Shown here: positions 27,846 through 51,444 of the stretch, piece by piece
Layout: each line of letters starts with the position of its first letter
Position numbering within the stretch: position 1 is the stretch's first letter
Source of the DNA: Myxococcota bacterium
Lineage (GTDB): Bacteria > Myxococcota_A > SURF-8
Direction: 5' to 3'
Length of the DNA stretch: 64,000 bases
NCBI GenBank assembly: GCA_965140415.1
Contig: OZ223209.1
Span: 5,312,001-5,376,000 of the forward strand
The notes under the pieces: generated by a model
The model's database searches: none
What the model saw: the letters and a program-made list of their open reading frames with translations, nothing else
Told to the model about the DNA's origin: nothing
Translations under genes and position numbers: made by a program

Positions 27846-27864
27846 AAGAAGAAATGCTTGCCGA

Positions 27865-27898: not shown

Positions 27899-27954
27899 CA
27901 AAGAAGGGATGCTTGACTCGATTGAACGGCATTTTTGATGAGAGGGAGGATGGC

Positions 27955-28629: not shown

Positions 28630-28634
28630 TTTCA

Positions 28635-28838
28635 ATGCGAATGCTTCACCTGAATGGGCAGCATGTGGTATTCTTCTGCGATCGTTGCGGCAAACGATTG
28701 AACGACGATGACCCCGGCACACCCCACTGGGAGGACTACGACCGCTTCCTGGAGACGGTTGGGATAGAAGATGAGGTGGAGACGGAGTTGTTGTGTGGAG
28801 AGTGTGTGGTGAAGAAATGGAGCAGAATAAATGAATAG
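28635..28838 (+). CDS. Small Zn-ribbon protein
   Basis: CDRCG...LCGEC; GAGGA RBS; overlaps the next start. Confidence 0.55.
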   Translation: MRMLHLNGQHVVFFCDRCGKRLNDDDPGTPHWEDYDRFLETVGIEDEVETELLCGECVVKKWSRINE

Positions 28839-32037: not shown

Positions 32038-32072
32038 TTGAGTTTTCCTCGCAAATTGTAGGATAAATTGCA

Positions 32073-34703: not shown

Positions 34704-34706
34704 CCG

Positions 34707-37700
34707 ATGGGGACGATTGATATCATTTCCGCCAGCGCCGGTAGCGGTAAAACCTATACCCTGAGTCAGCGCCTTGCCTTAGCCCTGTCCTCCGGTGAAA
34801 CCAGCCCCGAATCAGTGATCGCGGTCACATTTACCAAAAAGGCCGCCGCCGAGTTGCGCGAGCGGGTGCGAAGCTATTTGATCGCCGAGGGCAAACACGA
34901 CGACGCTCATCGCCTTCTGTCCAGCTATATCGGCACGGTGGATGCCATCTGTAATCGCCTGGTGGCGACCTTTGCTTTCGATCTGGGCATTCCGCCGGAG
35001 CCCGTATTGGTAGAAAAAGAACAACAAAAAGCCACGCTCAGCAGGATTTTGAGCCAGCAAGTGTCCCCGGACCAGGAAAGCGACATGTTGTCGTTATCCA
35101 GTCGCCTCGACTTGGCCAGTTGGACCGATACGGTTCACGACATGATCGAATTCATCCGTCTCAATCGGCTTGATGGGGAGGCTTTGCACCAAAGTGAGGC
35201 GAAAAGTGTGGAAGGGATCCAAGCGCTCTTCAAAGCCGGAAAGAACAATCCTGATGACCTGGAATCAAGATTGCTGGAGGCTGCTTATGAATGGCTTTCA
35301 GAAATCAGCAACCTGCCGAAAGTAACCAAGGGTACGCAAACCAAAGCAACTGCGCTTCGCCGGATCCTTGGAGACTTCAGAAACAGTCAGAATCCCAAAT
35401 GGAATCTCTGGCCGCAGATCGCGTATATGGCTCATCCCAGTCAGAAAATGCCCAAGGATGGATTGAATATCTTCGATCCCGTGAAAGCCGCAGCAGAGGC
35501 CATAGACGGACATCCCGGACTGCTTGCGGATATGCTTCTGATGGTGCAACGACTTTTCGCCTTCGCCGAGCAGACGTCGGTTCATTTCGCCAATCGAAAA
35601 CGGAGAAACGGCTGGCTGGACTACACGGATATGGAGGCTCTGGCGCTTGATCTGCTGGAGTTGCCTCGCGTGCGGAAATACCTGGAAGAACATATCAGCC
35701 TTGTGTTGGTTGATGAATTTCAGGACACGAATCCGTTGCAGTTGGCGATTTTCCTGAAACTCGCCTCGATTGCCAAGCACAGCATTTGGGTCGGCGATCA
35801 GAAGCAATCCATTTTCGGATTTCGGGACACCGATCCAAAGTTGATGGATGCCGTTATCGAACAGGTTGGTAAAGGCCGCGCACTCGACGTCCTGCCGCAT
35901 TCATGGCGCAGTGATAAGCGTCTGATCGACCTTACCTCCGAAGTGTTCGCCGAAGTCTTCGAGCCATACGGCATTCCACCGGAAAGGGTTCGTTTGAGTC
36001 TGCCGGACGAGCGTTCACAGGAAGCAGAGATCGATGCTCCTGTGCTCGAAATGTGGGATCTGATCGAGACGACAAATAAGAGCAATACCATTTTGGCTTT
36101 GGCCGCAGGCATACGCAATCTGTTCGATCGTGAGACTTTGGACATCCACGACCCTCGAAGCAAGGAAATCCGCCGGGCAGGGTTCGGTGATGTCGCGGTG
36201 CTGTGTCGCACGAACGATACCTGCGCCGAGGTGGCTGCGGTTCTGAAAGCCTGGAACATTCCGGTGGCGACGCCGCAAGGTGGACTCGTATCCACCTTGG
36301 AGGCAAGGGTTCTTATCAATGGGATGAGATTGGTCGGCGACCCACGCGATTCGCTGGCGTTAGCAGAATTGCATCGTTTGCTGAATCACCCGACGGATGA
36401 AGATGCCTGGTTTTCAAGTATCCTGTCCGACATGGAGGCAATCAAACAACACGATCCGATACACGATCTTATCGAACAGAGCAAACAACACGGACGTTCC
36501 GGTGCGCTAGAAGCCTTTGACCATGTCTGCCATACGCTCGATATCCGCAGCCTGTGTGCTCGCTGGGGAGATTCATCCAAGCGACTGGCGAACGTGGAGA
36601 AGCTTAGAGCACTGGTAGTTCAGTACATCCAGACTGGAAATAATGTAAAAACCGCTTCCTCGCTTGCGGATTATTTGTCGGAACTGGCGGGCCATGAAGG
36701 AGACGAACAGGGCATCCCGGCCGGCGGCGATATGGTGACGGTATTGACGATTCACAAAGCCAAGGGTTTGGAGTGGCCCATCACGATCCTCTTTGAACTG
36801 GCGAAGACGTATTCCGCCGATCCCTGGAAGCTTTCCGTCGTAGATGATCGGGAATCCATCAATATCAACGATCCGCTCGGTTTCCGTTGGATTCGCTGCT
36901 GGCCGAATCCTTTCGCGAATCTGCGGAGCAACGCCTTCTCCGTGACTACGATTGCGCAGCGAGTCGATGATTCCGATGTGGCGAAAGAAGCCGCAAAACG
37001 TCAAACATACGAGGAACTACGGCTCCTTTATGTTGCCTGGACTCGCGCTCGCGATCGCCTGATTCTAGCCGAAAACGAGCGAAGCTTCTTCACAGGCTTA
37101 CTCGCACCAGTAGCAAGCACTCTCGAAGATTGGAAGAAACAACCCGAAGATGAACAAAAACCACTGTCTGAAACGATTTCGATCCGGCAGTTTGCACCCA
37201 CTGCACCCACGGAGAAGGAACCTGCGCCTGACCCCATGTTCAAAGCTACCCGCCCGCAGGAACATGCACCAGCATACCTGCAACCATCAGCGCTGATGCA
37301 ATCCGGCTTGGTGGGTGACGTCGTCTCAATCGGAGAACGCATCACCCTTAGGAGCCATGATGTTCATATGGATCACGTGGGCGAAGCCATCCATGGCTTC
37401 TTCGCGGCTGATCGCAAGGGATATTCATTGAAACAACGCCTGGATATGGCGAATGGTTTGCTGGAAAGATGGCGGGTCGGCAATGCTTTGTCGGCAGAAA
37501 GCGTCGTGGCCGGTTCCGATAATCTTTACACCTGGATAGATGCGAATTGGAAAGATGCCAAGTATCGACGTGAATGGCCGTTGACCTATCGCAACGAGCA
37601 GGGCACCATTCTTCGGGGAAACGCCGATCTTGTATTGCAGACAAATGAAGGCTTCATCATTATCGACCACAAGAGTTTTCCGGGGAACCGAGAGCAAGCC

Positions 37701-37835
37701 TTGGAGAGATGCCGACAATACAGTGGCCAAATCAAGGCCTATGCCGAAGCCGTCATCAAAGGCACGGGGCAACCCGTGCGGGCATCATACATACATCTTC
37801 CGGTTTCAGGAATGATGGTGGAGATGGATATTTGA
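34707..37835 (+). CDS. AddA-like UvrD helicase-nuclease
   Basis: ASAGSGKT, LVDEFQDT, VGDQKQSIFGFR, TIHKAKGLE, LLYVAWTRAR, C-terminal GNADL...IIDHKS. Confidence 0.85.
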   Translation: MGTIDIISASAGSGKTYTLSQRLALALSSGETSPESVIAVTFTKKAAAELRERVRSYLIAEGKHDDAHRLLSSYIGTVDAICNRLVATFAFDLGIPPEPVLVEKEQQKATLSRILSQQVSPDQESDMLSLSSRLDLASWTDTVHDMIEFIRLNRLDGEALHQSEAKSVEGIQALFKAGKNNPDDLESRLLEAAYEWLSEISNLPKVTKGTQTKATALRRILGDFRNSQNPKWNLWPQIAYMAHPSQKMPKDGLNIFDPVKAAAEAIDGHPGLLADMLLMVQRLFAFAEQTSVHFANRKRRNGWLDYTDMEALALDLLELPRVRKYLEEHISLVLVDEFQDTNPLQLAIFLKLASIAKHSIWVGDQKQSIFGFRDTDPKLMDAVIEQVGKGRALDVLPHSWRSDKRLIDLTSEVFAEVFEPYGIPPERVRLSLPDERSQEAEIDAPVLEMWDLIETTNKSNTILALAAGIRNLFDRETLDIHDPRSKEIRRAGFGDVAVLCRTNDTCAEVAAVLKAWNIPVATPQGGLVSTLEARVLINGMRLVGDPRDSLALAELHRLLNHPTDEDAWFSSILSDMEAIKQHDPIHDLIEQSKQHGRSGALEAFDHVCHTLDIRSLCARWGDSSKRLANVEKLRALVVQYIQTGNNVKTASSLADYLSELAGHEGDEQGIPAGGDMVTVLTIHKAKGLEWPITILFELAKTYSADPWKLSVVDDRESININDPLGFRWIRCWPNPFANLRSNAFSVTTIAQRVDDSDVAKEAAKRQTYEELRLLYVAWTRARDRLILAENERSFFTGLLAPVASTLEDWKKQPEDEQKPLSETISIRQFAPTAPTEKEPAPDPMFKATRPQEHAPAYLQPSALMQSGLVGDVVSIGERITLRSHDVHMDHVGEAIHGFFAADRKGYSLKQRLDMANGLLERWRVGNALSAESVVAGSDNLYTWIDANWKDAKYRREWPLTYRNEQGTILRGNADLVLQTNEGFIIIDHKSFPGNREQALERCRQYSGQIKAYAEAVIKGTGQPVRASYIHLPVSGMMVEMDI

Positions 37836-37924: not shown

Positions 37925-39358
37925 TCAGGCTAACTTTTTCATCCAGCTTTCGATATCTTTCCAACCTTCAACTATTATTACATTTGTGGGTAGATCACTC
38001 CTCTTCTTGTTTTCTTCGTCGCTAAGATGGTCTTGAGGCTGGTTATAGGGGTGCGAAATTAGGAAAACTATATCACAGATAAATGATAGCTTGATCGCTT
38101 TCTGTAGATCATCCTCAACAAAGTATTTAATTTTTCGTCTCTTTGATAAAGTGAAGCGATTCATAATCTTGGTTCCTGTATGAGTTGTATAATCATTCCC
38201 GAATTCAATCTGCAATTTTCCGTAAGGGATACCATTCTTGTCGAGCCATCGTTTTGTGATACGATGTATTGGTTTTCGCTTTAAGTTTTGCAGAAACTCG
38301 ACTCTTCCTGGATTTCTAAAAAAGAAGCTAAGAATATTATACAAGAATAAAACAACTGGCGTACCAGCCCTTTTCGAGAAGGATGCGAGACACTGCTTAA
38401 GCTCATCTTTTGTTTCGCAATCTGGCCATGATCGATAGGTAAATATCTGTATGTCAATATGAAATACATTCTTGAACATGGAAAGAACACTTGCAGCACT
38501 TTCTATCTGTGGCATATCGACCCAATAATTCGGATCGTTGAATACACTTCTCTCCTCCGGTTTGGAAATATTAACTTGACTAGAATAGTTTACGGGCATT
38601 GTATCGAGTTTGTCTGGATTGATTTCTCTTTTGTACTTTTTCTCAAATATATTGCAGAAATGCTCCCTATGCTTGTTTAAAACGCCGTCAATGTCGACAC
38701 CTATAATATTTGACTTCGTATATTCATATTCCTTTCGCCAAGAACACCCAATGTAAAGTGCGAGGTGAAACAATAAGATAATTGGTATTAAGCATAATAT
38801 ATCAAAGGGATATGACTTAGCGTACATGTCTATTGTATTCTGAGACCAAACAGATTGGCAGGATAAGAACATTCGTATGAAAATGACAATAGCAATTGTA
38901 TTAAAGATTGAAAACAACAGAACTACTGAGAAAAAGAACCGCCATTCGAAGTAGTGAGGTTGAGAGGTGGTAACAGGTAGTTGACGTATACGATTCTTGT
39001 AATTTAAACCAAGTTCAGATTGGTCAAAAAAGTATTTCCTAACCCCATTGATCGCACGAGCATAGAGTAAGGCATCATACCTCATATAAATAACATATAT
39101 GAGCAGAGAGAGGCCAACCAAGAATAACGCCAAGAAAAGCAAAGCAATTGGGAACTGGTGTTTTATAAATATACTGGTTATTTCTTTTTTATTGAATAGT
39201 AGTGCTGCAGCTGGAAATGGTATAGACATTACCAGTATAAGATATCTGATAAACTGGCTTATCGAGTCTATGGATTTAAAATGAGCGTTGGCAAGATTCT
39301 GGTATTCAGCAAGAAGAAACTCGGGAAATTGATCTTTGCATTTTTGAACATCCATCAT
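37925..39358 (-). CDS. Membrane (about 4 TM) domain fused to a HAD 5'(3')-nucleotidase-like domain
   Basis: Hydrophobic helices in the first ~210 aa; IGVDIDGVL (HAD motif I), IFTYR, FVEDD, HPYN. Confidence 0.7.
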   Translation of the reverse strand: MMDVQKCKDQFPEFLLAEYQNLANAHFKSIDSISQFIRYLILVMSIPFPAAALLFNKKEITSIFIKHQFPIALLFLALFLVGLSLLIYVIYMRYDALLYARAINGVRKYFFDQSELGLNYKNRIRQLPVTTSQPHYFEWRFFFSVVLLFSIFNTIAIVIFIRMFLSCQSVWSQNTIDMYAKSYPFDILCLIPIILLFHLALYIGCSWRKEYEYTKSNIIGVDIDGVLNKHREHFCNIFEKKYKREINPDKLDTMPVNYSSQVNISKPEERSVFNDPNYWVDMPQIESAASVLSMFKNVFHIDIQIFTYRSWPDCETKDELKQCLASFSKRAGTPVVLFLYNILSFFFRNPGRVEFLQNLKRKPIHRITKRWLDKNGIPYGKLQIEFGNDYTTHTGTKIMNRFTLSKRRKIKYFVEDDLQKAIKLSFICDIVFLISHPYNQPQDHLSDEENKKRSDLPTNVIIVEGWKDIESWMKKLA

Positions 39359-39568: not shown

Positions 39569-40960
39569 CTATTTTCCGTTTAGAATCCTTCGTTCCTTCT
39601 CGATACGCTCCGCTTCGATATAGTGCTCCAGCAATTTCTTGAATTTTGCTGAAGAGGTACGTTTGAAGTCGGATTCAGTGACCTTTCCTTCTTTATGGAT
39701 TTCAAAAAGGATATCCTTCTGAGGTGTTGATAACGAATAGTAAATCTTCAGCCAATCTGCGGCACCATTGTTTTCATGCAATCGCCTATTGATGATGTAT
39801 TCATCTGGCATATTCGCAATAGCAAGGAATTCTTTCTCGTTGCGGCCAAAAGCAGCTTCAAAGAATTCCAGCCTTGGAGAGACCATCCCTCTGGTTGCCA
39901 GTAGAATGCACTGAACACCACGAATAAGTTTACGATTCCAATTCTTCCCGACATAGCTTCTGTTTTTATGAGTAAGCGGGATATATTTCATCGGAAAAGA
40001 GTAAATTTTAGTTCCCAATTCTTCATTCAGTTCACAATTGATTCTAAGCCGCTCATAAAAGTCTTCAGGCTTGTCATTGTAATTATAAAGTATATAGTTT
40101 GAAAGATTCAGGATACCATATTGTGCCGCCATTCTGATTTTTGAAATGTAAAGCTCTTCCATTGAAATATGATCGAAAGCGATTCTCATGGGTTTGATGG
40201 CAATCTCAGCCAGCAAAGCCATTTTCTTTTCATCCAATAGGCGAGCATCAAGCCCTTGGTTGAAATCAACTTTCCTTAAACGGTTATTAAGGCGTGCGCC
40301 CTTCTCAAAGCCTAATGTTTTGATATCGTCGATGATTCTTGGAAAGAAGCGTGAAGCTAGAACGTTGTTGTCCAACAGAACCAAATCCTGTTTTTGACCA
40401 TAAACCTCCTCAATTCCTTTTACCTGTTTAAAAAGTGGGGAGTAATGGCGAAATATAGGCTCAATTTTATGAACCGCACAAAACTTGCAGCGATTAGGGC
40501 AGCCTCTCGTTGAATACGCAATGTAGCAGTCCTTCGTTGCATACTGATATTCAATAGAATCCAATATCTTGTAATCTGGAATCAGCCGATCTATGTTATT
40601 GGTATCTCCTTTGTCAAGCGCACCTTTCTTGTCGAGTAGACCACGAATGACCGTCACCCCGGTTTCTGATCTGATTTCTTCCGAAAGCAAGGTGGCCATT
40701 ACGCCACCGACGATCACGTTGCTTGGCGAAGATGTAGCCCTTTTATAATATTCAATGGTCCGGATTGTTTCTGACCAGAAGAATGTAAACAGAGTGCTTA
40801 TATAAATCCTATCCCAGATCTCTTCACGATAAGCAGCTTTACACCCCTTAACAAAGTGAACCTCGTCACCTCGCAATTTATGATAAGAGGATATTTTCAT
40901 CAGGCCAAGGGGAGGGTATTTATTCCGATAGCCGGGTTCAACAAGGAGGATTTTGGACAT
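39569..40960 (-). CDS. Radical SAM protein with a B12-binding-like N-terminus
   Basis: EPGYRNKYPPLGLMKIS, VGGVMATL, TRGCPNRCKFC (CX3CX2C), LLDNN, DFNQGLDAR, RIAFDH. Confidence 0.85.
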   Translation of the reverse strand: MSKILLVEPGYRNKYPPLGLMKISSYHKLRGDEVHFVKGCKAAYREEIWDRIYISTLFTFFWSETIRTIEYYKRATSSPSNVIVGGVMATLLSEEIRSETGVTVIRGLLDKKGALDKGDTNNIDRLIPDYKILDSIEYQYATKDCYIAYSTRGCPNRCKFCAVHKIEPIFRHYSPLFKQVKGIEEVYGQKQDLVLLDNNVLASRFFPRIIDDIKTLGFEKGARLNNRLRKVDFNQGLDARLLDEKKMALLAEIAIKPMRIAFDHISMEELYISKIRMAAQYGILNLSNYILYNYNDKPEDFYERLRINCELNEELGTKIYSFPMKYIPLTHKNRSYVGKNWNRKLIRGVQCILLATRGMVSPRLEFFEAAFGRNEKEFLAIANMPDEYIINRRLHENNGAADWLKIYYSLSTPQKDILFEIHKEGKVTESDFKRTSSAKFKKLLEHYIEAERIEKERRILNGK

Positions 40961-40975
40961 AATTTAGAGTACCTA

Positions 40976-41419
40976 CTATTCTCCGGCTGTGTTGAAGAGA
41001 TAAGCGAGCAGAACCTTCGGGAGCTCATCTGAACAACTTCTATCAAGTCTCAGCTCGTTTCCGCTTTCAATGGTATAGTCAGCTAATATTTCTTCAAGGA
41101 GAATTCCCATGCCAGCGTTGGCGTATTCTTCAACTTTTGAAATGACCTCCTTATCATCGAGCACGGATGAATAGTTCATTTCTTCAGATTCGATAATGAT
41201 TGAATAATAGCTTGCGTATTCCTCTGGGGTGATGGTGCTTGACCAAAACCGGTCTTCACCTTGCTTTTGCAACGGTTTACGTTTTCCATGTCGAAAACCC
41301 AAACAGGCGCAAATGTAAAACAACTCATGAGCTTCCCTCACTGCAAAGTTTGACATCTCCTTGTACAGCGTCTTGTATTTTCGATCTGTGCGGACTCTGA
41401 TATCACCTGACATATTCAT
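40976..41419 (-). CDS. Dnd-system-associated protein 4 / DndE-like small protein
   Basis: ACLGF...KRKPL...EEYANAGMGIL pattern and position right after the ATPase; GGAGG RBS. Confidence 0.6.
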   Translation of the reverse strand: MNMSGDIRVRTDRKYKTLYKEMSNFAVREAHELFYICACLGFRHGKRKPLQKQGEDRFWSSTITPEEYASYYSIIIESEEMNYSSVLDDKEVISKVEEYANAGMGILLEEILADYTIESGNELRLDRSCSDELPKVLLAYLFNTAGE

Positions 41420-41420
41420 C

Positions 41421-43466
41421 TCACAACACCTCCGCTTCTTCGCGCAGCATACCTGTTGCCTGCGATGTCTCCAATTTTTCGATTTTCGTACTTCCGGGGC
41501 CACTGCCCTTTAATAAGTAGAACTTACCCCATTGACCAGTCCCCTTCAGAATGCCGGATTCATATTGACCGAACTCCGAATCTGTTGCCAGCAAAATCCA
41601 CTGGGTACACCATTCAGGAACTCTCTCAATCAAATTCTGTCTGTGATTCCTGGATAAGCGACCAAAAGGAGTATCCATGAACAAAGGCATTTCAAATATT
41701 TCTTTTCCTGCTGCGGCTTTAGCTAACGCAGCAATGAAAGCAATCGACATAATCTGTCTTTGTCCTGCTGAGATATTTGCCAAGAACGGTTTGTCCCAAC
41801 GATCATAGACCTGTATGCTATAATCAGAATCAACCCCGATCTTTTTCAGAGTTTGTCTGCCCTCATCATCAAGCAACTCGGAGAAATATTTTGTGGCATC
41901 CATCCCAATTCGGTCACGAGTCTCGCCAGTGAATTCTTCAAATATGGCCTCTAGTGCAGTGGTCGTATCATCTGCAAGTTTTGATCTTTTAACAAGGTCG
42001 TCTCGTATCCCTTCTTCCTTTTCCAACTCTTTTCGTTCTAATAAAAACTGTTCCCGAAGCTCTTTCAGTACGGATAATTCAGCCTTGAGAGTGTTCTGCT
42101 CATTTTCTAAATGCCCAATCCTCTTATCAATCCCCTGACGAGTAGCTTCCAGTTTTTCTGCATCTCGTCTTGCTGAATCACCAATTTTGCCCTGAAGGTC
42201 TTCAAGTTTCCGATAAGCAACCTGCAGGTCGTTTTTCTTCACTGCATATTTCTGCAGAAGCGACTGGGTCGTTCCTGCAATATCCGTGTAATGGCTTTTC
42301 ACAGTACTCAAGTATCGCCATAGGTTCAGCATGGAGTCCTCTACAACAACATCCGTAACCTTGTCACGCCATTGGAGGATTTTCTTGTGACCCGATGTTC
42401 CAGGCGAAATGTCCTGACCGCAAATACAGGTGCCATCATTTATTAGCCTGTCGATGAGGTCTTTCCTTATTTCGGATGGAATTTCATGCTTTTTTTTGCG
42501 CTTATCAATATCTCTGAAAACCTTTTCAACAGGCTTTCTCAATAGAAGAAGTGATGCTTTTCCTGACTGTACTTTCATTTCCGACAGGAGTTCTTTCAAC
42601 TCGCTATCGAGAATCTTGATCTCTTTTTCTTTGCTCTTTCTCTCCTTGAGTAGATCTTCAATGCCACGAATTTTTTCAAGCTCAGCATCTACTTTTTTCT
42701 TCTCTGCAGCGGCTAGCTGCAACTCTTCATCAATCTGATTAACCCTTTCATCAAGCTCAGTGCTACGATCCTCATTCTCCCTTATTTTCTTAATGATCTT
42801 GGCCATTTCACCAGTTGCCCTGGTCTCAATATCTTTATCTAAATCCCTTCTAAGGCGTTTCGTTGAGCGTTTAGCTGCTTCTAAGGTGTCTATATTGAGC
42901 AGTTTTCTGACACCCATTGAAATCTCTTTTTTCTGCTCTCGAGATGCCCTGGTTAGCCGTTCAATTTTTTCACCATCAAATAAAAAGTATTCTCGCAAGC
43001 CCCTATCAAGAATTGAGGATATATGATCAGAAACCTCATTAGGATTTCTTACTGTTGTAGAATTTCCATCATTGTCTTGGATGATAAGTTGAACACCATT
43101 ATCTTCTTCAGCAACAGTTCCTTCTTTATTCAACAAACCGAGTAAGGATCGTTCTATTTTATATGATCTTCCTTCATGCTGAAACGAAAGCTGCACACCT
43201 GCAATGACTGGTTTGCTATCAGCGGATTTTTCTTCCATTTCCGGATAATTCACCAGATACAGTTCTTTATCGTTGACCTGGTCATCCTGGCTTAGCTTCT
43301 TTTCACCGTACAAGCAAAATAATAGTGCTCGATAAAGACCGGTTTTCCCTCGTCCATTTTCTCCGAAAACAACGGTGACGTTACCTTCTTTTCCTGAAGA
43401 AAAATCTATTTCTTGAGTGCCGCGAAATTGCCGGAAATTTTTAAGTACCATATTCTGGAGGATCAT
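41421..43466 (-). CDS. DndD-like coiled-coil ABC ATPase with a CxC zinc hook
   Basis: NFRQF, GENGRGKT, FLFDGE, CICG in the coiled coil, ISAGQRQ, FMDTPFGRL, LLATDSE. Confidence 0.85.
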   Translation of the reverse strand: MILQNMVLKNFRQFRGTQEIDFSSGKEGNVTVVFGENGRGKTGLYRALLFCLYGEKKLSQDDQVNDKELYLVNYPEMEEKSADSKPVIAGVQLSFQHEGRSYKIERSLLGLLNKEGTVAEEDNGVQLIIQDNDGNSTTVRNPNEVSDHISSILDRGLREYFLFDGEKIERLTRASREQKKEISMGVRKLLNIDTLEAAKRSTKRLRRDLDKDIETRATGEMAKIIKKIRENEDRSTELDERVNQIDEELQLAAAEKKKVDAELEKIRGIEDLLKERKSKEKEIKILDSELKELLSEMKVQSGKASLLLLRKPVEKVFRDIDKRKKKHEIPSEIRKDLIDRLINDGTCICGQDISPGTSGHKKILQWRDKVTDVVVEDSMLNLWRYLSTVKSHYTDIAGTTQSLLQKYAVKKNDLQVAYRKLEDLQGKIGDSARRDAEKLEATRQGIDKRIGHLENEQNTLKAELSVLKELREQFLLERKELEKEEGIRDDLVKRSKLADDTTTALEAIFEEFTGETRDRIGMDATKYFSELLDDEGRQTLKKIGVDSDYSIQVYDRWDKPFLANISAGQRQIMSIAFIAALAKAAAGKEIFEMPLFMDTPFGRLSRNHRQNLIERVPEWCTQWILLATDSEFGQYESGILKGTGQWGKFYLLKGSGPGSTKIEKLETSQATGMLREEAEVL

Positions 43467-43636
43467 TGGGTTTCCTCCTTTTCCTTAACGATCTGTTTCA
43501 CTGCACCTTTTAATTGCTCAACAACAAATGTTTCTGGATTTGTCTCTGACAATTCAAGGGCACGCATGGCCAAAGCCCTGACATCTTCCGGGTATTCCAG
43601 AAGTTTCTCGAGAATCAATTTGTGAGTCTGTGACAT
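43463..43636 (-). CDS. 57-aa helical protein coupled to the ATPase
   Basis: Not in the ORF track. MSQTHKLILEKLLEYPEDVRALAMRALELSETNPETFVVEQLKGAVKQIVKEKEETQ; AGGAG RBS; ATGA overlap with the ATPase start. Confidence 0.75.
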   Translation of the reverse strand: MSQTHKLILEKLLEYPEDVRALAMRALELSETNPETFVVEQLKGAVKQIVKEKEETQ

Positions 43637-43645
43637 GAAAAACTC

Positions 43646-45796
43646 CTATTTACTGTATTCCTCAGTTTCCATCGCTTCTTTTTCTATCTTTTCCATTACC
43701 TCGTGATAGATATCCCAAGGCTTCATATGCAGCAAGTGAATCATCTCATAATCATTGACAATATCCCAAACAACATTTCTTGCCTGAAATTCATTGACCG
43801 AGGCCGATGCAAACTCTGCAAATCTTGGCATCTCACGCTTAAGCAGCCCAATGTCCGTTTCAGATTTATACTTTGCATTCTCTCGATCAGGCAAAACAAG
43901 AAAATCATACACTTCGGCCTGCAATTTCCCTTCATCTTTCCTGAGGATCCTTCCCCTGCGTTGAACGAATTCCTTAGGATTTGAGGTGCTTGCGAGGAAA
44001 TAAGCATAACGAGTTGACGGTATATCAACACCTTCATCTAGGCAATGTATGGCAACTAATACCTGAATATCGCCTTTTTCAAACTGCTTTAAAACCACCT
44101 CGCGCTGGTTCATCGTCACAGAATAAACAAATTCATGGCAACGCAAGCCTAGCAGAGCAATATTTGCCAAAACCTCTTTATGAGTACCTGGAGCGCAGTA
44201 AACAAGCGTATTATTCAGCTCTTCACCAGCGTCCTCAACTTCCGCCTTTTTTTGCTTGAGGTGGTCTATCAAAAGAGGGATTTTATTTTGAGCTTTAGAG
44301 ATAATATTTGCACGTTTGAGCAATTGCTTCTTGAGACGTTCCTTTTCTTCTGGTTCATTGTCGAGGTCGCGGTTCGCCAGATAAGCAATTTTCTGAGATA
44401 ATTCCTCGTACTCTTCTCTTTCGTCAGTGGTAAGGGAGGTGAGTATTGGGGTATATTTGTACGGGGTCAGATATGTTCCGATAGCTTGTTCTAATGAGAA
44501 CTCAAAGCAGACATCTGAAAAGTAATCCCAAAGAACATCAGTCCCTTCTTCGTCATACCAACGATGAGGAGTGGCGGATAAGCCAATTCGCATGTCGGCG
44601 TTGGGAGAAAGTCCTCGCTTTAGATGTCTGGATCCTAGACGATGAACTTCATCGACGATTAGCAAAAATTTATCCGATGGCAGTTCATCTAAGATAGACT
44701 GAAATTTATCTCCTGCCGCAGTGTGCTGTACGGCAAGAATGCAGATATTGGGGAGTACACCTGTTTTGAAATCTTGAATTCTTGATCTTGCCTCTACATA
44801 CCACTTGTTGTGGTTGCCACTGCATAGGATGGGATACATGCCAAAGCGTTCACAATTGTCTCTCCATTGATTTAATAAATGGAGATAAGGCACAAGGATT
44901 ACGACAGCAATTCTTTCTAACTTGCTTTGCCGATCCATCGCTGCAGATAGAGCAGTGAACGTCTTTCCCGTTCCCGTCGCCATCTCAAAAATGCCGCTAT
45001 AGTTGCTTTCCTCCCATTTGGAGATTGCCTCTTCTTGATAAGGTCGAAGTTCAATTTTCGCGCCACCTGTAATAGAAAGGGATTTTGAAGGCTTCTTGGT
45101 TTTATCGTAGTCTTTGTATGGTCGTTCAGTGCTTCGTAAATTTACAATCTCTTTTTCAATGGCATCAGGAATAGGAAGCACTTCAAACTGGCTATTGCCC
45201 TCTTTCCAAAGTTTCTGAAGGCGTTTTAGGTGTTGTTCTACATATGGTAATTGACCTTGATCCCACGATCTAAATACAGAGAAGGCTTCTCCATTAAGAG
45301 ACCCCTTTGTTGAGTCATTGAAGGAGCCATGGATTGCAACAACATCGTTCTGTTTGTCAATAAATACGCCAACTTTGTCATGATAGTCGCCCGATTGACC
45401 GGCTTTTCTTGGGATGGCGAATTTGAACTCCAGTACCCCATCGGCAACCATCCACGCAAGGGCATTCAAGGTATCTTTTGAAAGCGAATAACTTAGTTCT
45501 TTTACTTGCTGACGCAAAATTGCTTTAAGCGTATCATCTTGCTTTGCCGCATCACCTGTCTGTAATGCTTCCCAATCCTGTTGCTGCAATATCGGCGAGG
45601 TTACGATCCGTGCAGAACCTCCATTCTCAACAAGAGCTTGGATACCTTGACAAGCAGTGCGAAGCCACCCGGAAGTAAAATAGCCGACTCCTCGCCAGTA
45701 TTCTATTGACTCGCAAAGTAGGGGTGCCATTAGGTCCTTAACAAGGTCATAATCAGCACTGTCATAAACGGGATGGAGTTGCAGATCAGTCAGCAT
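43646..45796 (-). CDS. PLD(HKD)-nuclease fused to an SF2 helicase, of the Dnd-associated restriction-enzyme type
   Basis: VGYFTS, YHDKVG...HGSFNDS; MATGTGKT, VDEVH, LSATP, LDEGVDIP, QRRGRILR. Confidence 0.85.
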   Translation of the reverse strand: MLTDLQLHPVYDSADYDLVKDLMAPLLCESIEYWRGVGYFTSGWLRTACQGIQALVENGGSARIVTSPILQQQDWEALQTGDAAKQDDTLKAILRQQVKELSYSLSKDTLNALAWMVADGVLEFKFAIPRKAGQSGDYHDKVGVFIDKQNDVVAIHGSFNDSTKGSLNGEAFSVFRSWDQGQLPYVEQHLKRLQKLWKEGNSQFEVLPIPDAIEKEIVNLRSTERPYKDYDKTKKPSKSLSITGGAKIELRPYQEEAISKWEESNYSGIFEMATGTGKTFTALSAAMDRQSKLERIAVVILVPYLHLLNQWRDNCERFGMYPILCSGNHNKWYVEARSRIQDFKTGVLPNICILAVQHTAAGDKFQSILDELPSDKFLLIVDEVHRLGSRHLKRGLSPNADMRIGLSATPHRWYDEEGTDVLWDYFSDVCFEFSLEQAIGTYLTPYKYTPILTSLTTDEREEYEELSQKIAYLANRDLDNEPEEKERLKKQLLKRANIISKAQNKIPLLIDHLKQKKAEVEDAGEELNNTLVYCAPGTHKEVLANIALLGLRCHEFVYSVTMNQREVVLKQFEKGDIQVLVAIHCLDEGVDIPSTRYAYFLASTSNPKEFVQRRGRILRKDEGKLQAEVYDFLVLPDRENAKYKSETDIGLLKREMPRFAEFASASVNEFQARNVVWDIVNDYEMIHLLHMKPWDIYHEVMEKIEKEAMETEEYSK

Positions 45797-48779
45797 AATT
45801 CAGCAACTCCTTCAAGATAATTTCGCGACCTCGGATTACCACTTTACTGTTATCTCCTAGCATACTCGGGGTTAAGTGCCTTTTAATAATCCTCTCATTA
45901 GCAAGCATTTCTTGGAATTCGGCTAGATTTGCCGCTCCGTCCCATTCTTTTTCAAGTATCATATGGACAAGGTCTTCTAGGCAAGAAAGAAACCCATTCT
46001 CTGAAGCAGGGACAAAAGCCTCACGGGTATTGCCGAGGAGCTTAAATTTTCCGTTCTTTTTGAGTAAATCCGAAATCATAAAAGGGGACCAATACAAGCC
46101 AGATGGAAGCTTTGGCAGCTTGGGAGATTCTGCGAGGAGAGATATTCGTCCGAAATGCCTTCCTGCCATTTTAGCTGTTTCATAATGCAGATAAGCCAAA
46201 TCTTCTAGTTCACTTTGCTTAAGGTCACTCCATTCAAGCGTATCCTTATGGATAAAACATCCTGCGTGATAGAAGAAAACATTTTCGTGATTTGCTACAT
46301 AATAGACTTGTTGTTCTTGATATTTTAGATTTCTTACAAAATAATCTTCAAGCTTCTCATAAGGACATGGCGAATTGGCCTTTCTTATATATTCGACAAT
46401 CAATTCCTGAATACCATGTCGAGTTTCACTCTCGGAAGCACCGGGCCTTTCGATTCTTGGGTAACGTTCAAGCTCAAGTGAACCATCATTGTAATATTGC
46501 AGCAATGAATATAGCATGTCTGAACAATTGATGCCGTAGGCCAAGCAAGTAACTTGTTTTTCTTTAAAGAGCTTTTCAACAGAGAAATGCTCCTCAGTCA
46601 GTAATAGATTCACGGCGTATCTAAGAATATTTTCAATGGCATCCTGATTTACCGAAATATTATCAATATGAGCTATTTTGTTGCGAGTAACGTAAATTGC
46701 ATTCGGAATTCTGTATATCGCTTGATCAAACTGGAACGGTTTTAAAAGCATTTTGTCAAGTGCGAATCGTCTTAGCTCCTTTACTGTTTTCGGCTCACCT
46801 GTTTCCAGTAGAACATTTTCCAAAGCAACCGAAGTAGGCATATATTCTATAAAGGTTTCTCTTAAGTAAATGTAAGGGGTTTTAGGAAAAACGAGCTTGG
46901 GGTTTTTGTTTTGCTTTAAACAGGTATAAAGCGCCAATTCCGCAAACATGCCTGCTTGATTGCAACGCTTTTCAAAATGACGATATGCACCGTATGCAGA
47001 CACAAATGGGATATCATCCTGAAGTATTTTGATAAGCCATTCTTCAACATCATGAATCAGAGAGATCGGAACAATTGCGTTTTCTTTGTGAATGAACGTT
47101 CCCCTCTCCCAAAGCAAAGAATTTTCGCTACGGTCAAGCATGGCATGAACATTTCGCTCTTCAACATCGGGACGCCATTTCCTTAAATGCTCCGTGATCT
47201 CAGAGAAATGAGCATGTTTCCCTATAGATAACAATACTTCTTCTACCGCATCGATAGACCTGCCATGTTTAAGTTTCCACAACCCCCTTGAATACAGCCG
47301 ATATTTATGGATTTTCATCGAAAAGTTGCATTTTCCGATAGCATGAAATAGCAAAGCATCTGAAACGTTTACAATTCCAAGCTCTTGATCTTTCTGTATG
47401 TATTGGATAAATGCTTCCTTAAAAGCCTTCAGGCTTACACTCCACAATTCATTATTGTACCACTCATCTGCAATGGTTGGAGCTAGCTCTTCAATCTTTC
47501 TAGAGAAGGCTTTCAGATCAGGCATCAAAGTATTTTTAACTACGCTCCTCTTAGAGACTCTAAGATCTCTTTTTTTACTGATGTTCAATTCTAAGAAAAA
47601 CTCCAACAAACGTGTTGCTTTTGCCAGATAGTCTCCATCTTGACCAACACAAAAAAGCCTCTCAGTAAGCTCCTCAACGCTAATCATTCCACCTAACTGC
47701 TCTACGATGGATTCTGCTTTTTCAATCAGAGGAATCAATCTGGCTTGCTGAGTTTGCAATGAGGCTTTTTTTTCTATTGAAACTTCAATTTGACGAACTC
47801 GTTCTCTGGTAAGTTCACATTCCATCCCCGCTTGTTCCAACGTAACAGGTTCAGCCCCTAGCATTCCTTTACGAAGCATGAAAACTTTTGCCTGCTTATC
47901 TGAACGAGTCAAACTTCGTATCCATTTGGATAGCCAAGGGAAAGGATTTTCCACGTCAATCAATAACTCTTCAGACACATCAGCACTGGAACCCCGTTCA
48001 CTCAAACCTAAAAAACAGGGAGCTAGCAGTATTTTTCCCGTGGTCAATGGCTCTGATTTTGATAAAAGCAGATTTATTTGTGAAACCAGCCCGTTTTGAA
48101 TGGCATGAATCTCGTCAACTGTTTTTCTTCCACAATTCTTTGTCTCAAATAGGCGATTCCTTTCCAGTCTCATAAATTCAGAAAGTGAATCAACGCCAGA
48201 ATTGGTCACCACATATTTTGCTCGTTTACTTAACGAAGCCACTACAGCTTTGAAAAGTCGGCCTCCTGAATCGGGAATTTGCTCCATTACTATTCCAAAA
48301 TCACATGGAGAAGTGCTGGCAACATTGGGGCTCTTGCTGTTCTCCTCCCCGCCTGCTAAATGAGAAGCCAACTCTTTTTGCAATCTTTCAATTTCAAAAA
48401 CAGTCGTGCGACCGCAGTTCCTGCATCGAAACAATTCACCCGAAGATAAGGCTAAAAAACAATCTAAACTGGACACGCCAAGATCATCTAGCACACGGTT
48501 GGCGCGTACGCTTAGCAATTCTCTAAGGTTCTGAGTTCTAATATTAAACTTATTGGCTTGAGTACCTAATTCTGTTTTAAAGCCCTGTTTTAGCAGTGAA
48601 GCTTGAAATTCTTCAATTTCTCTGACAGTTTTAACACCACAGTTTCTCACTTGAAGAAGGTCATCTCTGGACAATTTAATAAATGATTCAATATCGGTCA
48701 CACCAATAGCGTCAAGAACACCTTTGGCTCTAACTGAAAGCGGAATATTTAGGATTTTAGAATTTTCATTCATCATCAT
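45786..48779 (-). CDS. Protein with three RNAP alpha-CTD-like repeats, a sigma70 region-4 HTH and winged-helix-like regions
   Basis: Three LS(V/K)RA...(R/K)NCG(V/R)(K/T)TVxEI units; TLEQAG...LTRERVRQIE. Confidence 0.75.
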   Translation of the reverse strand: MMMNENSKILNIPLSVRAKGVLDAIGVTDIESFIKLSRDDLLQVRNCGVKTVREIEEFQASLLKQGFKTELGTQANKFNIRTQNLRELLSVRANRVLDDLGVSSLDCFLALSSGELFRCRNCGRTTVFEIERLQKELASHLAGGEENSKSPNVASTSPCDFGIVMEQIPDSGGRLFKAVVASLSKRAKYVVTNSGVDSLSEFMRLERNRLFETKNCGRKTVDEIHAIQNGLVSQINLLLSKSEPLTTGKILLAPCFLGLSERGSSADVSEELLIDVENPFPWLSKWIRSLTRSDKQAKVFMLRKGMLGAEPVTLEQAGMECELTRERVRQIEVSIEKKASLQTQQARLIPLIEKAESIVEQLGGMISVEELTERLFCVGQDGDYLAKATRLLEFFLELNISKKRDLRVSKRSVVKNTLMPDLKAFSRKIEELAPTIADEWYNNELWSVSLKAFKEAFIQYIQKDQELGIVNVSDALLFHAIGKCNFSMKIHKYRLYSRGLWKLKHGRSIDAVEEVLLSIGKHAHFSEITEHLRKWRPDVEERNVHAMLDRSENSLLWERGTFIHKENAIVPISLIHDVEEWLIKILQDDIPFVSAYGAYRHFEKRCNQAGMFAELALYTCLKQNKNPKLVFPKTPYIYLRETFIEYMPTSVALENVLLETGEPKTVKELRRFALDKMLLKPFQFDQAIYRIPNAIYVTRNKIAHIDNISVNQDAIENILRYAVNLLLTEEHFSVEKLFKEKQVTCLAYGINCSDMLYSLLQYYNDGSLELERYPRIERPGASESETRHGIQELIVEYIRKANSPCPYEKLEDYFVRNLKYQEQQVYYVANHENVFFYHAGCFIHKDTLEWSDLKQSELEDLAYLHYETAKMAGRHFGRISLLAESPKLPKLPSGLYWSPFMISDLLKKNGKFKLLGNTREAFVPASENGFLSCLEDLVHMILEKEWDGAANLAEFQEMLANERIIKRHLTPSMLGDNSKVVIRGREIILKELLNYAD

Positions 48780-48817
48780 TAGTTTATTTTTTGGTCTGGT
48801 GACTAGTAATAGGCTGG

Positions 48818-49051
48818 CTAATTAAAAAAAATAGCCTCACTGGGTTTAATATTCCCAACGGAAACTTGATGTTCGATAAAGGAGTTTAGTTGCCGCTTTG
48901 CAAGTTTTGATGGATTGACCTTTCCATTTTCCCAACGATTTACAGTTCCGAAGCTCACCCCCAATTCTCTTGCGAGATCTTCTTGGCTTATACCAAGTGC
49001 TTTTCTAATACGCTGTATGGCAATTTTGTAATTAAAACCCTTAGATACCAT
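48818..49051 (-). CDS. XRE-family HTH regulator
   Basis: IRKALGISQEDLARELGVSFGTVNRWENGKVNPS. Confidence 0.85.
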   Translation of the reverse strand: MVSKGFNYKIAIQRIRKALGISQEDLARELGVSFGTVNRWENGKVNPSKLAKRQLNSFIEHQVSVGNIKPSEAIFFN

Positions 49052-49091
49052 TTCCCGCTCTCCGTTTTCAATTACAGTCCTACTCGGCATC

Positions 49092-49296: not shown

Positions 49297-51345
49297 CTAT
49301 TTACTGCTCTCCAGATCCAGATACCTCAACCGGAAAGCCATTAGCCATTCCTTTTCAGCCTTGGTCAACTCGGCGGTTTCAAATTTCTTAATCAGCCAGT
49401 CGAGAGGCACATCATTGAAGCTGGCCATGGGCTGCAATAGTTCTCGGTATCCAGCGACCACACTTGCGCAAGCATCATCTTCTGGGTGACGCACCAGCAT
49501 GAACATCCCAGTCTCGTAGGGTGATCCCGGATGGACCTGTAGGGCGATAACCAGCAAATGGTCGCGCCATAGCTGGTTGTGGATGATGGCATCCACCTTG
49601 TCGTCGGTATCCGGCAAAAATATCGATGGCTCCGTCTGCATCCAGCGCCGGTAGGCCGGGCCGTCATAATGCTTTTGCGAAAACGGCTCGGTCAGTTTCG
49701 TTTCAATTCCAATGAAGGCCAGCTTTCCGTTTGTACGTTCGTAGTCGATGAAAGCGTCGAAGGCGGTGCGGTCATTGAGCATTTCATCCCTCGGTTCCGG
49801 CGCAAATTCGATCGTCACCCCTCGTACCTTTTTAACTTCACCCGGCAGGGTCGTCTGCAATAGCTTGGTGGCCAGCTTCGTATCAATCACCATTGGCCCG
49901 AAGAGATTAAAACACATCGGCTGGCTGGACAGCATGTTGTGAAGCAGACGGTAACGCTCCACAACTCCGATATTCATTGCCAGACGTGCCAGCGCTACTC
50001 GGAAAATCTCCGGTGTGAGGAAGTTCGCACCGGCTTCCGACGCTTCTGGCGCCAGCATATTTCCGTAATAGTTAAGACTGTTGGCCTTCGGTCCCTTGCC
50101 GTAGGGCGCATTGAGGATCTCGGACCTGTACCAGCTCTGATGATGACGCATGCGCGCAGTGAAGGCGTTATCGCCACTGTACTGAGGACCTAGACCCATG
50201 TGATCGGATGAATCCGATTGTTTCGGTTTCGGTTTATTAAGTCGTTTTCGGTCTGTTTGGCAGACGGGCTTGTGCGCCGCAACGCTCGGAGCTTGCTTAA
50301 GTCGCTTTAGATCTGCCAATCCTTCCACTTTTAAACCGAACCAACCGGGCCAGGCCGCCAAAGCCACCTTGGCGGTCTCTACTCGTCCGATAGCAGCCAT
50401 CTCCGGACAGTCATAAAGCTCACCCATCAATCTCGCGAGCTGACTGAAAAACGGGTTTAGTTCGTCTGTATGCTTGCGAAAGTAGTCCAGGTAGTCCTGC
50501 ACTTGGGTGAGGGCGCTGTAGTCCTTTTCACGTTTCAACTCAATCAGCACCAGAGTCCGGCTGACCAAGTCTACAGCAAGCAAATCGGTGAACAGCTGAC
50601 CTCGTTTCCTAGGATTATCGATGCGCCACTGACTATGAAGAAAGCGCAGACGCTCGGGAAATCCGGGCATGGTAAGATGATTGGCCTGCGCTTCACTGAT
50701 TATCTTGGCTTCAAGCTGATTCTCCCTGGAGTTGCCTTTCTGCCTCGATCGAACACCGTCAAGATAGGCGATACGCGAGGGAATACTCGCTTCGACAGCC
50801 AGCCAGGTCGTCCCGCGTCGCAGCAACGACTGGTCTCCTTCGCCAATACCAATTCTTGGTTTAGGTGAGCGGGCATGCAAATCCACCATACGAACCCCGC
50901 TGTCCAATGGCCGAAAGTACACGCCACCGAATGCAGGAATCGCGTCCATACGCTGCTTGATATCCCGGAATTCTTCGGTGGCCATATAGGCCAGGGTGTC
51001 GTAATGACCGGATCTCACAACGTTTCCGGCAGTTGCAACTGGGACGGGCTTCGATTTTATTGGCTTTGATTTTGGGGCTTTCGGTTGGGGGGCAGAACCG
51101 GCAAGCTCCCAGATTGAACCGCGTTTCGTTCTCGATTGCAACTCGGTTAGCAGAGGTTGACCGCTATCATCGATCAGATTTTTAAGAGCTTTGCCGACAA
51201 ATGCGTGGTAATGCGAGTGTGTTTTCAAATGCTCGTGGGCCTCCCGCATAACCTGATGTTCAGAAATATCTTTTGTTGCGAAAGTGCCGGACATACATGC
51301 AATGGCTGCCAGCATGGCCTTGCGATTGACGTCTTTATAACCCAT
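49297..51345 (-). CDS. Multidomain protein with two PD-(D/E)XK-type nuclease domains (C-terminal PGN_0703-like)
   Basis: TDLLAVD...LIELKR...QVQDY; then NMLSSQPMCFNLFGP, DRTAFDAF, GIETKLTE, QLWRDHL. Confidence 0.7.
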   Translation of the reverse strand: MGYKDVNRKAMLAAIACMSGTFATKDISEHQVMREAHEHLKTHSHYHAFVGKALKNLIDDSGQPLLTELQSRTKRGSIWELAGSAPQPKAPKSKPIKSKPVPVATAGNVVRSGHYDTLAYMATEEFRDIKQRMDAIPAFGGVYFRPLDSGVRMVDLHARSPKPRIGIGEGDQSLLRRGTTWLAVEASIPSRIAYLDGVRSRQKGNSRENQLEAKIISEAQANHLTMPGFPERLRFLHSQWRIDNPRKRGQLFTDLLAVDLVSRTLVLIELKREKDYSALTQVQDYLDYFRKHTDELNPFFSQLARLMGELYDCPEMAAIGRVETAKVALAAWPGWFGLKVEGLADLKRLKQAPSVAAHKPVCQTDRKRLNKPKPKQSDSSDHMGLGPQYSGDNAFTARMRHHQSWYRSEILNAPYGKGPKANSLNYYGNMLAPEASEAGANFLTPEIFRVALARLAMNIGVVERYRLLHNMLSSQPMCFNLFGPMVIDTKLATKLLQTTLPGEVKKVRGVTIEFAPEPRDEMLNDRTAFDAFIDYERTNGKLAFIGIETKLTEPFSQKHYDGPAYRRWMQTEPSIFLPDTDDKVDAIIHNQLWRDHLLVIALQVHPGSPYETGMFMLVRHPEDDACASVVAGYRELLQPMASFNDVPLDWLIKKFETAELTKAEKEWLMAFRLRYLDLESSK

Positions 51346-51383
51346 AATTATCTCCCAAATCCGCTCTGTTCAACATGTCTGAG

Positions 51384-51416
51384 AGCATATATCACGCTGC
51401 GACAGAATACGTCGCC
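51384..51416 (-). promoter_or_regulatory. WYL-activator-type promoter, box 3
   Basis: Minus strand GGCGAC-GTATTCT-GTCGC-AGCGTGATA-TATGCT. Confidence 0.6.
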
Positions 51417-51444
51417 ACGTGAACAGTCAGAGCAGGAATTGTTC

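Follow-up and report, generated by a model that had tools for sequence, protein, structure and literature searches.

PbeABCD was described alongside dndCDEA in archaea (Xiong 2019, PMC6459918), and the accessible text of a later study equates it with the CxC ABC-ATPase (ABC, ATP-binding cassette) systems (Rakesh, Aravind & Krishnan 2024, PMC10853773). In that text, PbeA is assigned as a fusion of an HKD domain with a superfamily 2 (SF2) helicase, PbeB as a small and rapidly evolving protein, PbeC as the CxC ATPase, and PbeD as the cognate of DndE. The CxC-DndE core is said there to recruit a modification component, for either phosphorothioation or cytosine methylation, and some systems stand alone; the two mentions of "radical SAM" in that paper both concern DndC. 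Here we describe a PbeABCD locus in a stretch of 64,000 nucleotides from a Myxococcota bacterium (contig OZ223209.1, positions 5,312,001 to 5,376,000, forward strand; "the window"), in which the core genes are followed by a gene for a radical S-adenosylmethionine (SAM) enzyme of 463 amino acids (aa) at 39569 to 40960 on the minus strand (rSAM).

The four core genes (HKD-SF2 PbeA, small PbeB, CxC PbeC, and DndE-like PbeD) are those of the described PbeABCD/CxC ABC-ATPase systems and stand in the same order. Unlike in those systems, there is no dndCDEA and no cytosine methylase here; the rSAM gene follows PbeD, and a gene for a 997-aa protein precedes PbeA. The locus resembles DndABCDE and SspABCD in joining a DndD-like ATPase and a DndE-like partner to a restriction module for self/nonself discrimination, but it differs from them in that the genome has no match to DndC, DndB, or an SspD-type gene and that PbeC scores below the DndD cutoff. 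An earlier note on this DNA had presented the operon as a Dnd-like module forming a candidate new DNA modification-restriction system. The scaffold already carries a name, PbeABCD, and the locus is therefore a variant with a new partner rather than a new scaffold; the new element, the rSAM partner, is the part of that claim that stands. We favor the reading that this is a defense cassette of the modification-restriction type in which the rSAM writes a self mark on DNA, a proposal that we regard as evenly balanced between right and wrong.

The operon (39569 to 49090, minus strand) consists of seven intact, closely packed genes, listed here in 5'-to-3' order:

48818 to 49090, minus strand: XRE-family helix-turn-helix protein, 90 aa (Pfam HTH_3, 9.1e-14)
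45786 to 48779, minus strand: 997-aa alphaCTD/sigma-r4/winged-helix protein (RNA_pol_A_CTD, 7e-19; Sigma70_r4, 4.4e-5)
43646 to 45796, minus strand: PbeA (PADLOC PbeA, 6.3e-225)
43463 to 43636, minus strand: PbeB, 57 aa (by position; homologues in the same slot)
41421 to 43466, minus strand: PbeC (PADLOC PbeC, 1e-172; Walker A; CICG hook)
40976 to 41419, minus strand: PbeD, 147 aa (PADLOC PbeD, 2.9e-6; by slot)
39569 to 40960, minus strand: rSAM, 463 aa (CPNRCKFC; fold)

From the coordinates, the intergenic gaps measure 38, 9, 1, and 15 bp, and two overlaps measure 11 and 4 bp, in agreement with the earlier note, which had spoken of gaps of 38 bp or less and two overlaps. All seven genes lie on the minus strand at the places it gave, and its gene descriptions were correct wherever they were checked. 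Its span of 39569 to 49051 holds at the left end, whereas the right end falls 39 bases inside the longest XRE open reading frame (ORF), which begins at 49090. Comparison with homologues indicated that all operon genes are full length.

The association between the rSAM and the Pbe genes was examined from both sides. A protein search with the rSAM placed 7983 of 8000 scored candidates at E ≤ 0.001, so that the family comprises at least 7983 proteins; the best 120 are 57 to 77% identical. A scan of genomes with the rSAM, limited to one genome per species, found at least 529 relatives among 599 pattern matches, and the best 80 were used. Conversely, metagenomes were scanned with an alignment of PbeC sequences; of 386 pattern matches, 260 proved to be relatives, and again the best 80 were used, with identities of 40 to 64%. 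The PbeC alignment was built from rSAM-linked loci, and the result therefore covers this PbeC clade and not all CxC systems. The rSAM gene follows PbeD, at a distance of 15 to 40 nt, in 71 of the 72 metagenome loci that have at least 800 nt beyond PbeC. Linkage of rSAM and Pbe is thus near-obligate in this PbeC clade.

In the reverse direction, 19 of the 80 rSAM-selected genome loci (L003 to L008, L010 to L021, and L032) have PbeA to PbeC directly upstream in the order seen in the window. Their hosts include Desulfobacteraceae, Victivallales, Bacteroides, Planctomycetota, Actinomycetota, Cryosericum, an archaeon, and Methanomethylovorans. Across all 80 loci, tblastn with the window proteins matched PbeA in 20, PbeC in 20, PbeD in 18, the 997-aa protein in 15, and PbeB in 14. 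The Pbe set of L039 lies downstream of another cassette, the PbeA match of L079 is a partial helicase only, and L009 is incomplete. The earlier note had proposed to test for conserved linkage of the rSAM to the ATPase and helicase, and the two counts (71 of 72 and 19 of 80) bear that linkage out.

An rSAM tree of 79 rows (78 loci and the window; L044 and L078, whose ORFs are shorter than 380 aa, were left out) placed the window enzyme in a 20-row clade with SH-aLRT support of 98, and 18 of these rows are labeled Pbe-linked. The other two are L013, in which PbeA to PbeD were found by tblastn, and the incomplete L009. L021, with a far more distant Pbe set, is placed elsewhere in the tree. On this phylogeny, the Pbe-linked rSAMs appear as one clade of a very large family.

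Outside this clade, the family recurs in other surroundings. When all ORFs of the 80 genome loci were clustered and representatives were scanned against family models, three further recurrent cassettes were found to end with the rSAM: an SNF2 cassette, a DISARM-like cassette, and a PD-Lambda-5_A pair. The first runs c1, c3, an SNF2 helicase (c2; ZorD/DpdE-like, 3e-64), and c1, and often continues with a DndB/DpdB-like gene (PF14072, 2.2e-13; PADLOC DpdB, 1.8e-35) and an unknown or metallo-beta-lactamase-fold gene before the rSAM. A GHKL ATPase of ~500 aa with a weak Pfam HATPase_c match often follows the rSAM, and HATPase_c_3 clusters at 0.99 in the Atlas give a lead to its nature. The SNF2 helicase lies near the rSAM in 31 of the 79 tree rows, and only a DndB-like or GHKL gene does so in 11 more. 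In L023 (4257 to 9993) and similar loci, the SNF2 cassette has two paralogous c1 genes of ~340 aa and a 135-aa gene without a family; c1 shows weak N-terminal similarity to PD-Lambda-5_A, and the second c1 copy weakly matches PADLOC PDC-M38A.

The DISARM-like cassette comprises a UvrD-like helicase, DrmA (2.1e-178), a DrmB-like MZB protein, and a NERD helicase, followed by the rSAM. It is present in L037 (1000 to 11437) and L095 (2 to 11470), which share all four partners in the same order at 34 to 44% identity; a further copy, in L058, reaches the end of its sequence after the NERD helicase. No methylase was seen in the five-gene cassettes of L037 and L095, which look like a DISARM-like system with the rSAM at the methylase position. 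In six tree rows, the rSAM adjoins a PD-Lambda-5_A-like protein (3.9e-60), and PD-Lambda-5_B, the known partner model, matches a Dam-type methylase (3.8e-15). According to the accessible part of its description, PD-lambda-5 is a compacted restriction-modification and abortive-infection system with "methyltransferase" as its top domain match, and it was cloned in an mrr-deleted host (Vassallo 2022, PMC9519451).

Members of the same rSAM family that are 43 to 57% identical occur in cassettes without PbeA or PbeB. Judging from gene context and from the makeup of DISARM, in which we take a methylase normally to fill the slot where the rSAM sits, the enzyme seems to stand at the position where such systems normally have their DNA writer. 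In L174 (10573 to 14692), PbeC is 63% identical to that of the window, and PbeD is followed by a triad of DndB-like, long rSAM, and GHKL genes; the long rSAM belongs to another clade and replaces the short one. The candidate writer module can therefore be exchanged as a unit.

The family also extends to viruses. By tblastn it was found in 16 of 50,697 phage records, and a pattern scan of viral contigs gave at least 539 relatives. In the best 79 distinct loci among these, Pbe genes are absent, a GHKL gene is present in 18, and an SNF2 helicase is present in 10; most hold short solo copies. The copies in cultured phages measure 290 to 360 aa and keep the family's own motifs. In LoVEphage, a Bacteroides phage (L167, 5974 to 6891), the rSAM lies between a block of C5-methylase and PAPS-reductase genes and the Dam genes; in phiCT453B (L169, 4965 to 5840), a short rSAM lies inside the replication module; and in Marinitoga camini virus 1 (L168, 6001 to 7083), a short rSAM stands beside HerA/NurA-like genes. 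Solo copies among phage methylases are what would be expected of a protective DNA-marking enzyme, a lead that comes from distant homology.

The enzyme itself has a CX3CX2C cluster motif, CPNRCKFC, whose cysteines (C154, C158, and C161) are the only invariant cysteines in 40 sequences. Its predicted fold (pLDDT, 94.3; pTM, 0.89) comprises a Rossmann-like, B12-binding-like N terminus, a radical SAM barrel, and a helical C-terminal domain, and the placement of CX3CX2C in a modeled barrel that matches rSAM structures assigns it to the radical SAM superfamily. The best solved matches in Foldseek were MgmA (5.6e-12), TsrM, MiaB, AprD4, and OxsB (8.7e-8), at template modeling (TM) scores of ~0.5 (MiaB, 0.53) and 14 to 16% identity; spore photoproduct lyase was a weaker match (9.3e-4). 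A Rossmann-like N terminus followed by a barrel with CX3CX2C is shared with the class B cobalamin-dependent rSAMs (MgmA, TsrM, OxsB, TokK, and CysS; Foldseek, 5.6e-12 to 1e-5). Unlike these, the enzyme has no sequence match to a solved chain at E ≤ 1 (family profile against Protein Data Bank sequences), and it has its own C-terminal helical domain and its own conserved motifs, NKYPPLGLMK and VDFNQGxDAR. It matched no PADLOC-DB 2.0 family at E ≤ 0.01 and only BchE, weakly, in NCBIfam, and a fold search of BFVD returned only generic phage rSAM/B12-like proteins at TM < 0.5, with no functional lead.

A methylthiotransferase of the MiaB/RimO type was considered and rejected: despite the similar fold, no second conserved cysteine triad is present among the 40 sequences, and since only the three cluster cysteines are invariant, a MiaB-type second cluster is ruled out. 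Within the B12-like rSAM group, the enzyme therefore forms a branch of its own that is strongly conserved, and relatives do not reveal its substrate. The genome has one copy. A complex prediction for rSAM and PbeD scored 0.00, which gives no verdict and counts neither way.

A further gene lies 210 bp downstream of the rSAM gene, inside the AT-rich island:

37925 to 39358, minus strand: NT5C-like protein, 477 aa, a possible accessory gene (NT5C, 6.1e-4, below cutoff)

The protein has a hydrophobic N-terminal half and a C-terminal domain resembling NT5C (a deoxyribonucleotidase of the HAD type). A homologue comes immediately after the rSAM in L039 and L234, where it is full length, and in L007, L180, and L243, where it corresponds to the N-terminal part only. 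Because L039 belongs to another rSAM clade, the 477-aa gene seems to be linked to the rSAM rather than to Pbe.

Other DNA marks were sought in the genome, which consists of one 5.98-Mb contig and has a marker completeness of 93.7%. The earlier note had seen no dndA, dndB, dndC, or TGT/dpdA gene in the window. In the one-contig genome, there were no matches to DndC, none to DndB, and none to an SspD-type gene, and the linked phosphorothioation genes of the first-described DndCDEA-PbeABCD arrangement are missing. The sole DndD-like gene is PbeC, and the sole PAPS_reduct-like (PP-loop) match is TilS. The lack of DndC, DndB, and SspD-type matches led us to reject an ordinary Dnd or Ssp system whose marking genes lie elsewhere in the genome. 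A Dpd-type system was likewise rejected; the genome has a single tRNA-guanine transglycosylase, which is high scoring (571 bits) and lies 3.9 Mb from the island. As a side observation, TilS is the only member of the PAPS-reductase family in the whole genome at E ≤ 0.001, and hence there is no assimilatory CysH-type gene. Among the 20 loci that we call type A, no gene family other than the alphaCTD protein, PbeA, PbeC, PbeD, and the rSAM was present in three or more, and because no other family recurs there, these loci conserve no hidden methylase.

The scaffold genes agree with PbeABCD to different degrees. PbeA matches the PADLOC PbeA model over its full length and has Pfam ResIII (9e-23) and Helicase_C (1e-12) domains. 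It also matches TIGR04095 (dnd_restrict_1) at 2.6e-140 (468 bits, under the 600-bit cutoff) and NF042964 at 2.2e-12. A single HKD-type motif (YHDKVGVFID...HGSFNDS), read in the translation, is fused to the SF2 helicase, and PbeA is presumed to be the restriction nuclease-translocase. PbeC, in keeping with an ABC ATPase that has a coiled-coil insert and a CxC hook, matches its PADLOC model over positions 1 to 649. Its Walker A motif (GENGRGKT) and CICG hook are readable from the translation, and both cysteines of C347-I-C349 are invariant in 17 sequences. Against TIGR03185 (DndD) it scores 4.8e-46 (157.5 bits), under the cutoff of 245.85, so that it is not a DndD equivalog; a role as a DNA-scanning ATPase is proposed.

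The model matches of PbeD are weak (besides PADLOC PbeD, TIGR04062 at 6.1e-6, with 26.4 bits against a cutoff of 74.25). It lies directly after PbeC with a gap of 1 nt and is conserved, and its ATG start at 41419 was set by 17 aligned homologues that begin M-x-M/L-x-G-D-I-R-V. It is probably a DndE-like DNA-binding partner of PbeC. PbeB has no Pfam, PADLOC, or NCBIfam match; by tblastn, the same slot holds a homologue in 14 of the 80 loci from genomes and in 49 of the 80 from metagenomes. PbeA, PbeB, and PbeC each answer to the description of their PbeABCD counterparts.

Upstream of these genes lie two putative DNA-binding proteins. The 997-aa protein matches RNA_pol_A_CTD, an alphaCTD-like helix-hairpin-helix domain, over two stretches, with a third repeat visible by eye, and PADLOC PglW at 4.2e-12 (model positions 809 to 985). 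PglW of type-2 BREX has the same alphaCTD and winged-helix segment, according to the accessible text of PMC12839542. The predicted fold of residues 340 to 997 (the C-terminal 658) has a pLDDT of 89 and repeating H-H-H-E-E units, and its Foldseek matches are winged-helix arrays (UFL1 and the C terminus of SelB); HARE-HTH/sigma-r4 clusters at 0.82 to 0.86 in the ESM Atlas, below the 0.9 mark, are a lead only. No catalytic domain was found in the protein, which, given this fold, the alphaCTD repeats, and the sigma-r4 helix-turn-helix, seems to be a scaffold that binds nucleic acid and has no catalytic role. Homologues precede PbeA in 15 of the 80 loci from genomes and in 56 of the 80 from metagenomes, and many of the other loci are incomplete at the edge. 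The XRE protein is likely a controller-type regulator; tblastn gave no match to it in either set of 80 loci, from genomes or from metagenomes.

In the mechanism that we propose, PbeABCD would be the restriction and DNA-tracking half, with PbeC and PbeD as a scanning pair, PbeA as the HKD nuclease-helicase, and the small PbeB, extended by the large alphaCTD/sigma-r4/winged-helix DNA-binding protein. The self-marking half would be the B12-like rSAM in place of DndACDE or a cytosine methylase. Through its 5'-deoxyadenosyl radical, possibly with cobalamin, the rSAM may install a carbon-centered mark on host DNA, with a C-methyl group on base or sugar as a first guess. PbeCD would scan DNA, PbeA would cut or block DNA without the mark, and the XRE protein would set the order of expression. 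The role of the rSAM as the writer of a DNA mark is one that we infer from gene context. The earlier note had further supposed that the ATPase complex delivers the enzyme; this found no support, as the family also stands beside SNF2/DndB-like, DrmA/DrmB, and PD-Lambda-5_A genes without a CxC ATPase.

Several observations weigh against a DNA-writing rSAM. The one exception among the 72 metagenome loci, L248, is a close Pbe locus with a convergent gene after PbeD and no rSAM. The rSAM scores below the cutoffs of its Pfam models (Radical_SAM, 1.7e-4, 22.3 versus 29.5; B12-binding, 6e-3, 16.8 bits versus 32.1), and its closest folds, at TM of ~0.5, act on a protein (MgmA), an amino acid (TsrM), a tRNA (MiaB), a sugar (AprD4), or a free deoxynucleotide (OxsB). 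The "methylase slot" argument is built from gene context and the presumed composition of DISARM, and the phage homologues are 25 to 34% identical, are without the C-terminal domain, and may differ in role. The NT5C-like nucleotidase gene after the rSAM in the window, L039, and L234 suits nucleotide chemistry. The defense rSAMs known so far, viperins among them, produce or modify small nucleotides and are not known to mark DNA. The same is suggested for the rSAM of Ophion in the available part of its report (bioRxiv 2025.09.30.679545). Finally, CxC systems also occur without a modification gene, according to the accessible text of PMC10853773, so that a marking partner is no logical necessity.

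Some of these points would suit an rSAM that is an effector on free nucleotides, like viperin or OxsB, with PbeABCD sensing foreign DNA and the enzyme producing a toxic or chain-terminating analogue or destroying the pool, perhaps helped by the NT5C-like membrane protein. The fold matches include OxsB (8.7e-8), a B12-rSAM whose substrates are deoxyadenosine phosphates, the NT5C-like gene lies directly downstream in the three loci named, and the Ophion rSAM is proposed to act by nucleic-acid interference (accessible part of bioRxiv 2025.09.30.679545). However, of the 160 loci searched in genomes and metagenomes, only these three have a full-length NT5C-like partner, the rSAM occurs together with DndB/DpdB-like DNA-modification partners and sits in the methylase slot of three other cassettes, solo phage copies among the phages' own DNA methylase genes would be odd for a toxic-nucleotide synthase, and no PADLOC model matched the rSAM (viperin models included, if the library has them). 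We consider such an effector unlikely. Modification of a protein or peptide of the system, e.g., PbeB or PbeA, so as to arm or restrain the nuclease, would fit the best structural match, MgmA (5.6e-12), a B12-rSAM that methylates protein glutamine, and the presence in the operon of a 57-aa protein without known function. It is made improbable by the occurrence of the family (at 43 to 57% identity) in cassettes without PbeB or PbeA, by its solo occurrence in phages, and by the presence of PbeB in CxC systems without this rSAM, as given in the accessible text of PMC10853773.

An rSAM that reverses or repairs DNA chemistry, by stripping phage modifications for PbeA or, in the manner of spore photoproduct lyase, by repairing lesions of the radical or UV type, strikes us as more improbable still. 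Spore photoproduct lyase is among the fold matches (9.3e-4), and the McrBC-like modification-dependent system in the window indicates that modified invaders matter to this host; yet the similarity to the lyase is weak, phage copies among methylases suit a writer more than an eraser, and we know of no precedent for an eraser or repair rSAM of this kind. That the rSAM is a mere neighbor in a crowded defense island, with no functional tie to PbeABCD, deserves almost no credence: it is contradicted by the 71 of 72 loci, from many phyla, with the rSAM 15 to 40 nt after PbeD, by the single Pbe-linked clade in the rSAM tree, and by the 15-bp gap to PbeD on the same strand in the window.

Returning to the favored reading, in which the rSAM writes a self mark, the arrangement recalls DISARM, PD-lambda-5, BREX, and Dpd in having one conserved writer gene with exchangeable helicase and nuclease modules. 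DrmA/DrmB-like, PD-Lambda-5_A-like, and SNF2 with DndB/DpdB-like genes were found with the rSAM family, and the alphaCTD and winged-helix segment of the 997-aa protein is shared with BREX PglW. Unlike in all four, the candidate writer here is an rSAM and not a SAM-dependent methylase or a transglycosylase. Like the viperins, it is an rSAM inside an anti-phage locus. The same applies to OpnA of Ophion, and those systems, as far as the accessible part of the report goes, differ in pairing the rSAM with nucleotide-metabolism genes (PHP and phosphoribosyltransferase), without a DNA-tracking ATPase or a helicase-nuclease (bioRxiv 2025.09.30.679545). The searchable full-text literature (supplements and subscription journals lie outside this scope) gave no account of this rSAM in partnership with CxC/Pbe, DISARM-like, PD-lambda-5-like, or SNF2/DndB-like systems, and term lookups in the searchable text of PMC10853773, PMC12707154, and PMC12839542 found no mention of such a partnership.

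We further suggest, at slightly less than an even chance, that the rSAM family is an unrecognized class of DNA writers producing a radical-derived, carbon-centered mark (e.g., a C-methyl on base or sugar) made by no known methylase. Bacteria and archaea would label their own DNA with this mark in at least four restriction architectures (PbeABCD, SNF2/DndB-like/GHKL, DISARM-like, and PD-lambda-5-like), and the phage copies would counterfeit that label.

The base composition of the region sets the operon apart, with a GC content of 0.38 to 0.44 at 38 to 50 kb versus 0.52 to 0.59 in both flanks. A PbeC/DndD-like match was present in 5 of 401 sampled genomes of the same phylum, its own genome counted, and the remaining four are only 24 to 26% identical, so that the cassette is sporadic in the phylum. 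The GC dip and the sporadic presence together indicate that the island was acquired horizontally. A promoter and terminator scan of 37.5 to 49.6 kb gave the same counts as shuffled sequence.

The window as a whole is a crowded defense island, with a NERD helicase and McrBC-like, PDDEXK_13/REase-ARP, and WYL/WCX genes. Beyond the rSAM end of the operon, a defense-type block on the plus strand (26148 to 37835) contains a NERD-UvrD-like helicase (26148 to 27845), an AAA_5 McrB-like gene with an McrC gene (28831 to 32037), and an AddB/AddA-like pair of PD-(D/E)XK and UvrD helicase-nucleases (32073 to 37835). Beyond the XRE gene, the minus strand at 49297 to 52491 encodes a 682-aa PDDEXK_13/REase-ARP nuclease (2.4e-75) and a 348-aa WCX-domain protein, which are possibly a separate regulated nuclease system.

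The self-marks known from prokaryotic defense are N- or C5-methylation, phosphorothioate, and 7-deazaguanine. If the proposal is true, a widespread rSAM writer would add new chemistry to these epigenetic self-marks and would explain how "orphan" PbeABCD systems without Dnd genes tell self from nonself. It would also explain unassigned long-read methylome signals from anaerobes and identify a new phage counterdefense gene. Because the rSAM family is abundant, well conserved, and confidently folded, it is directly testable. Should the rSAM instead prove to be a nucleotide-directed effector, it would represent a third type of radical-SAM antiviral enzyme.

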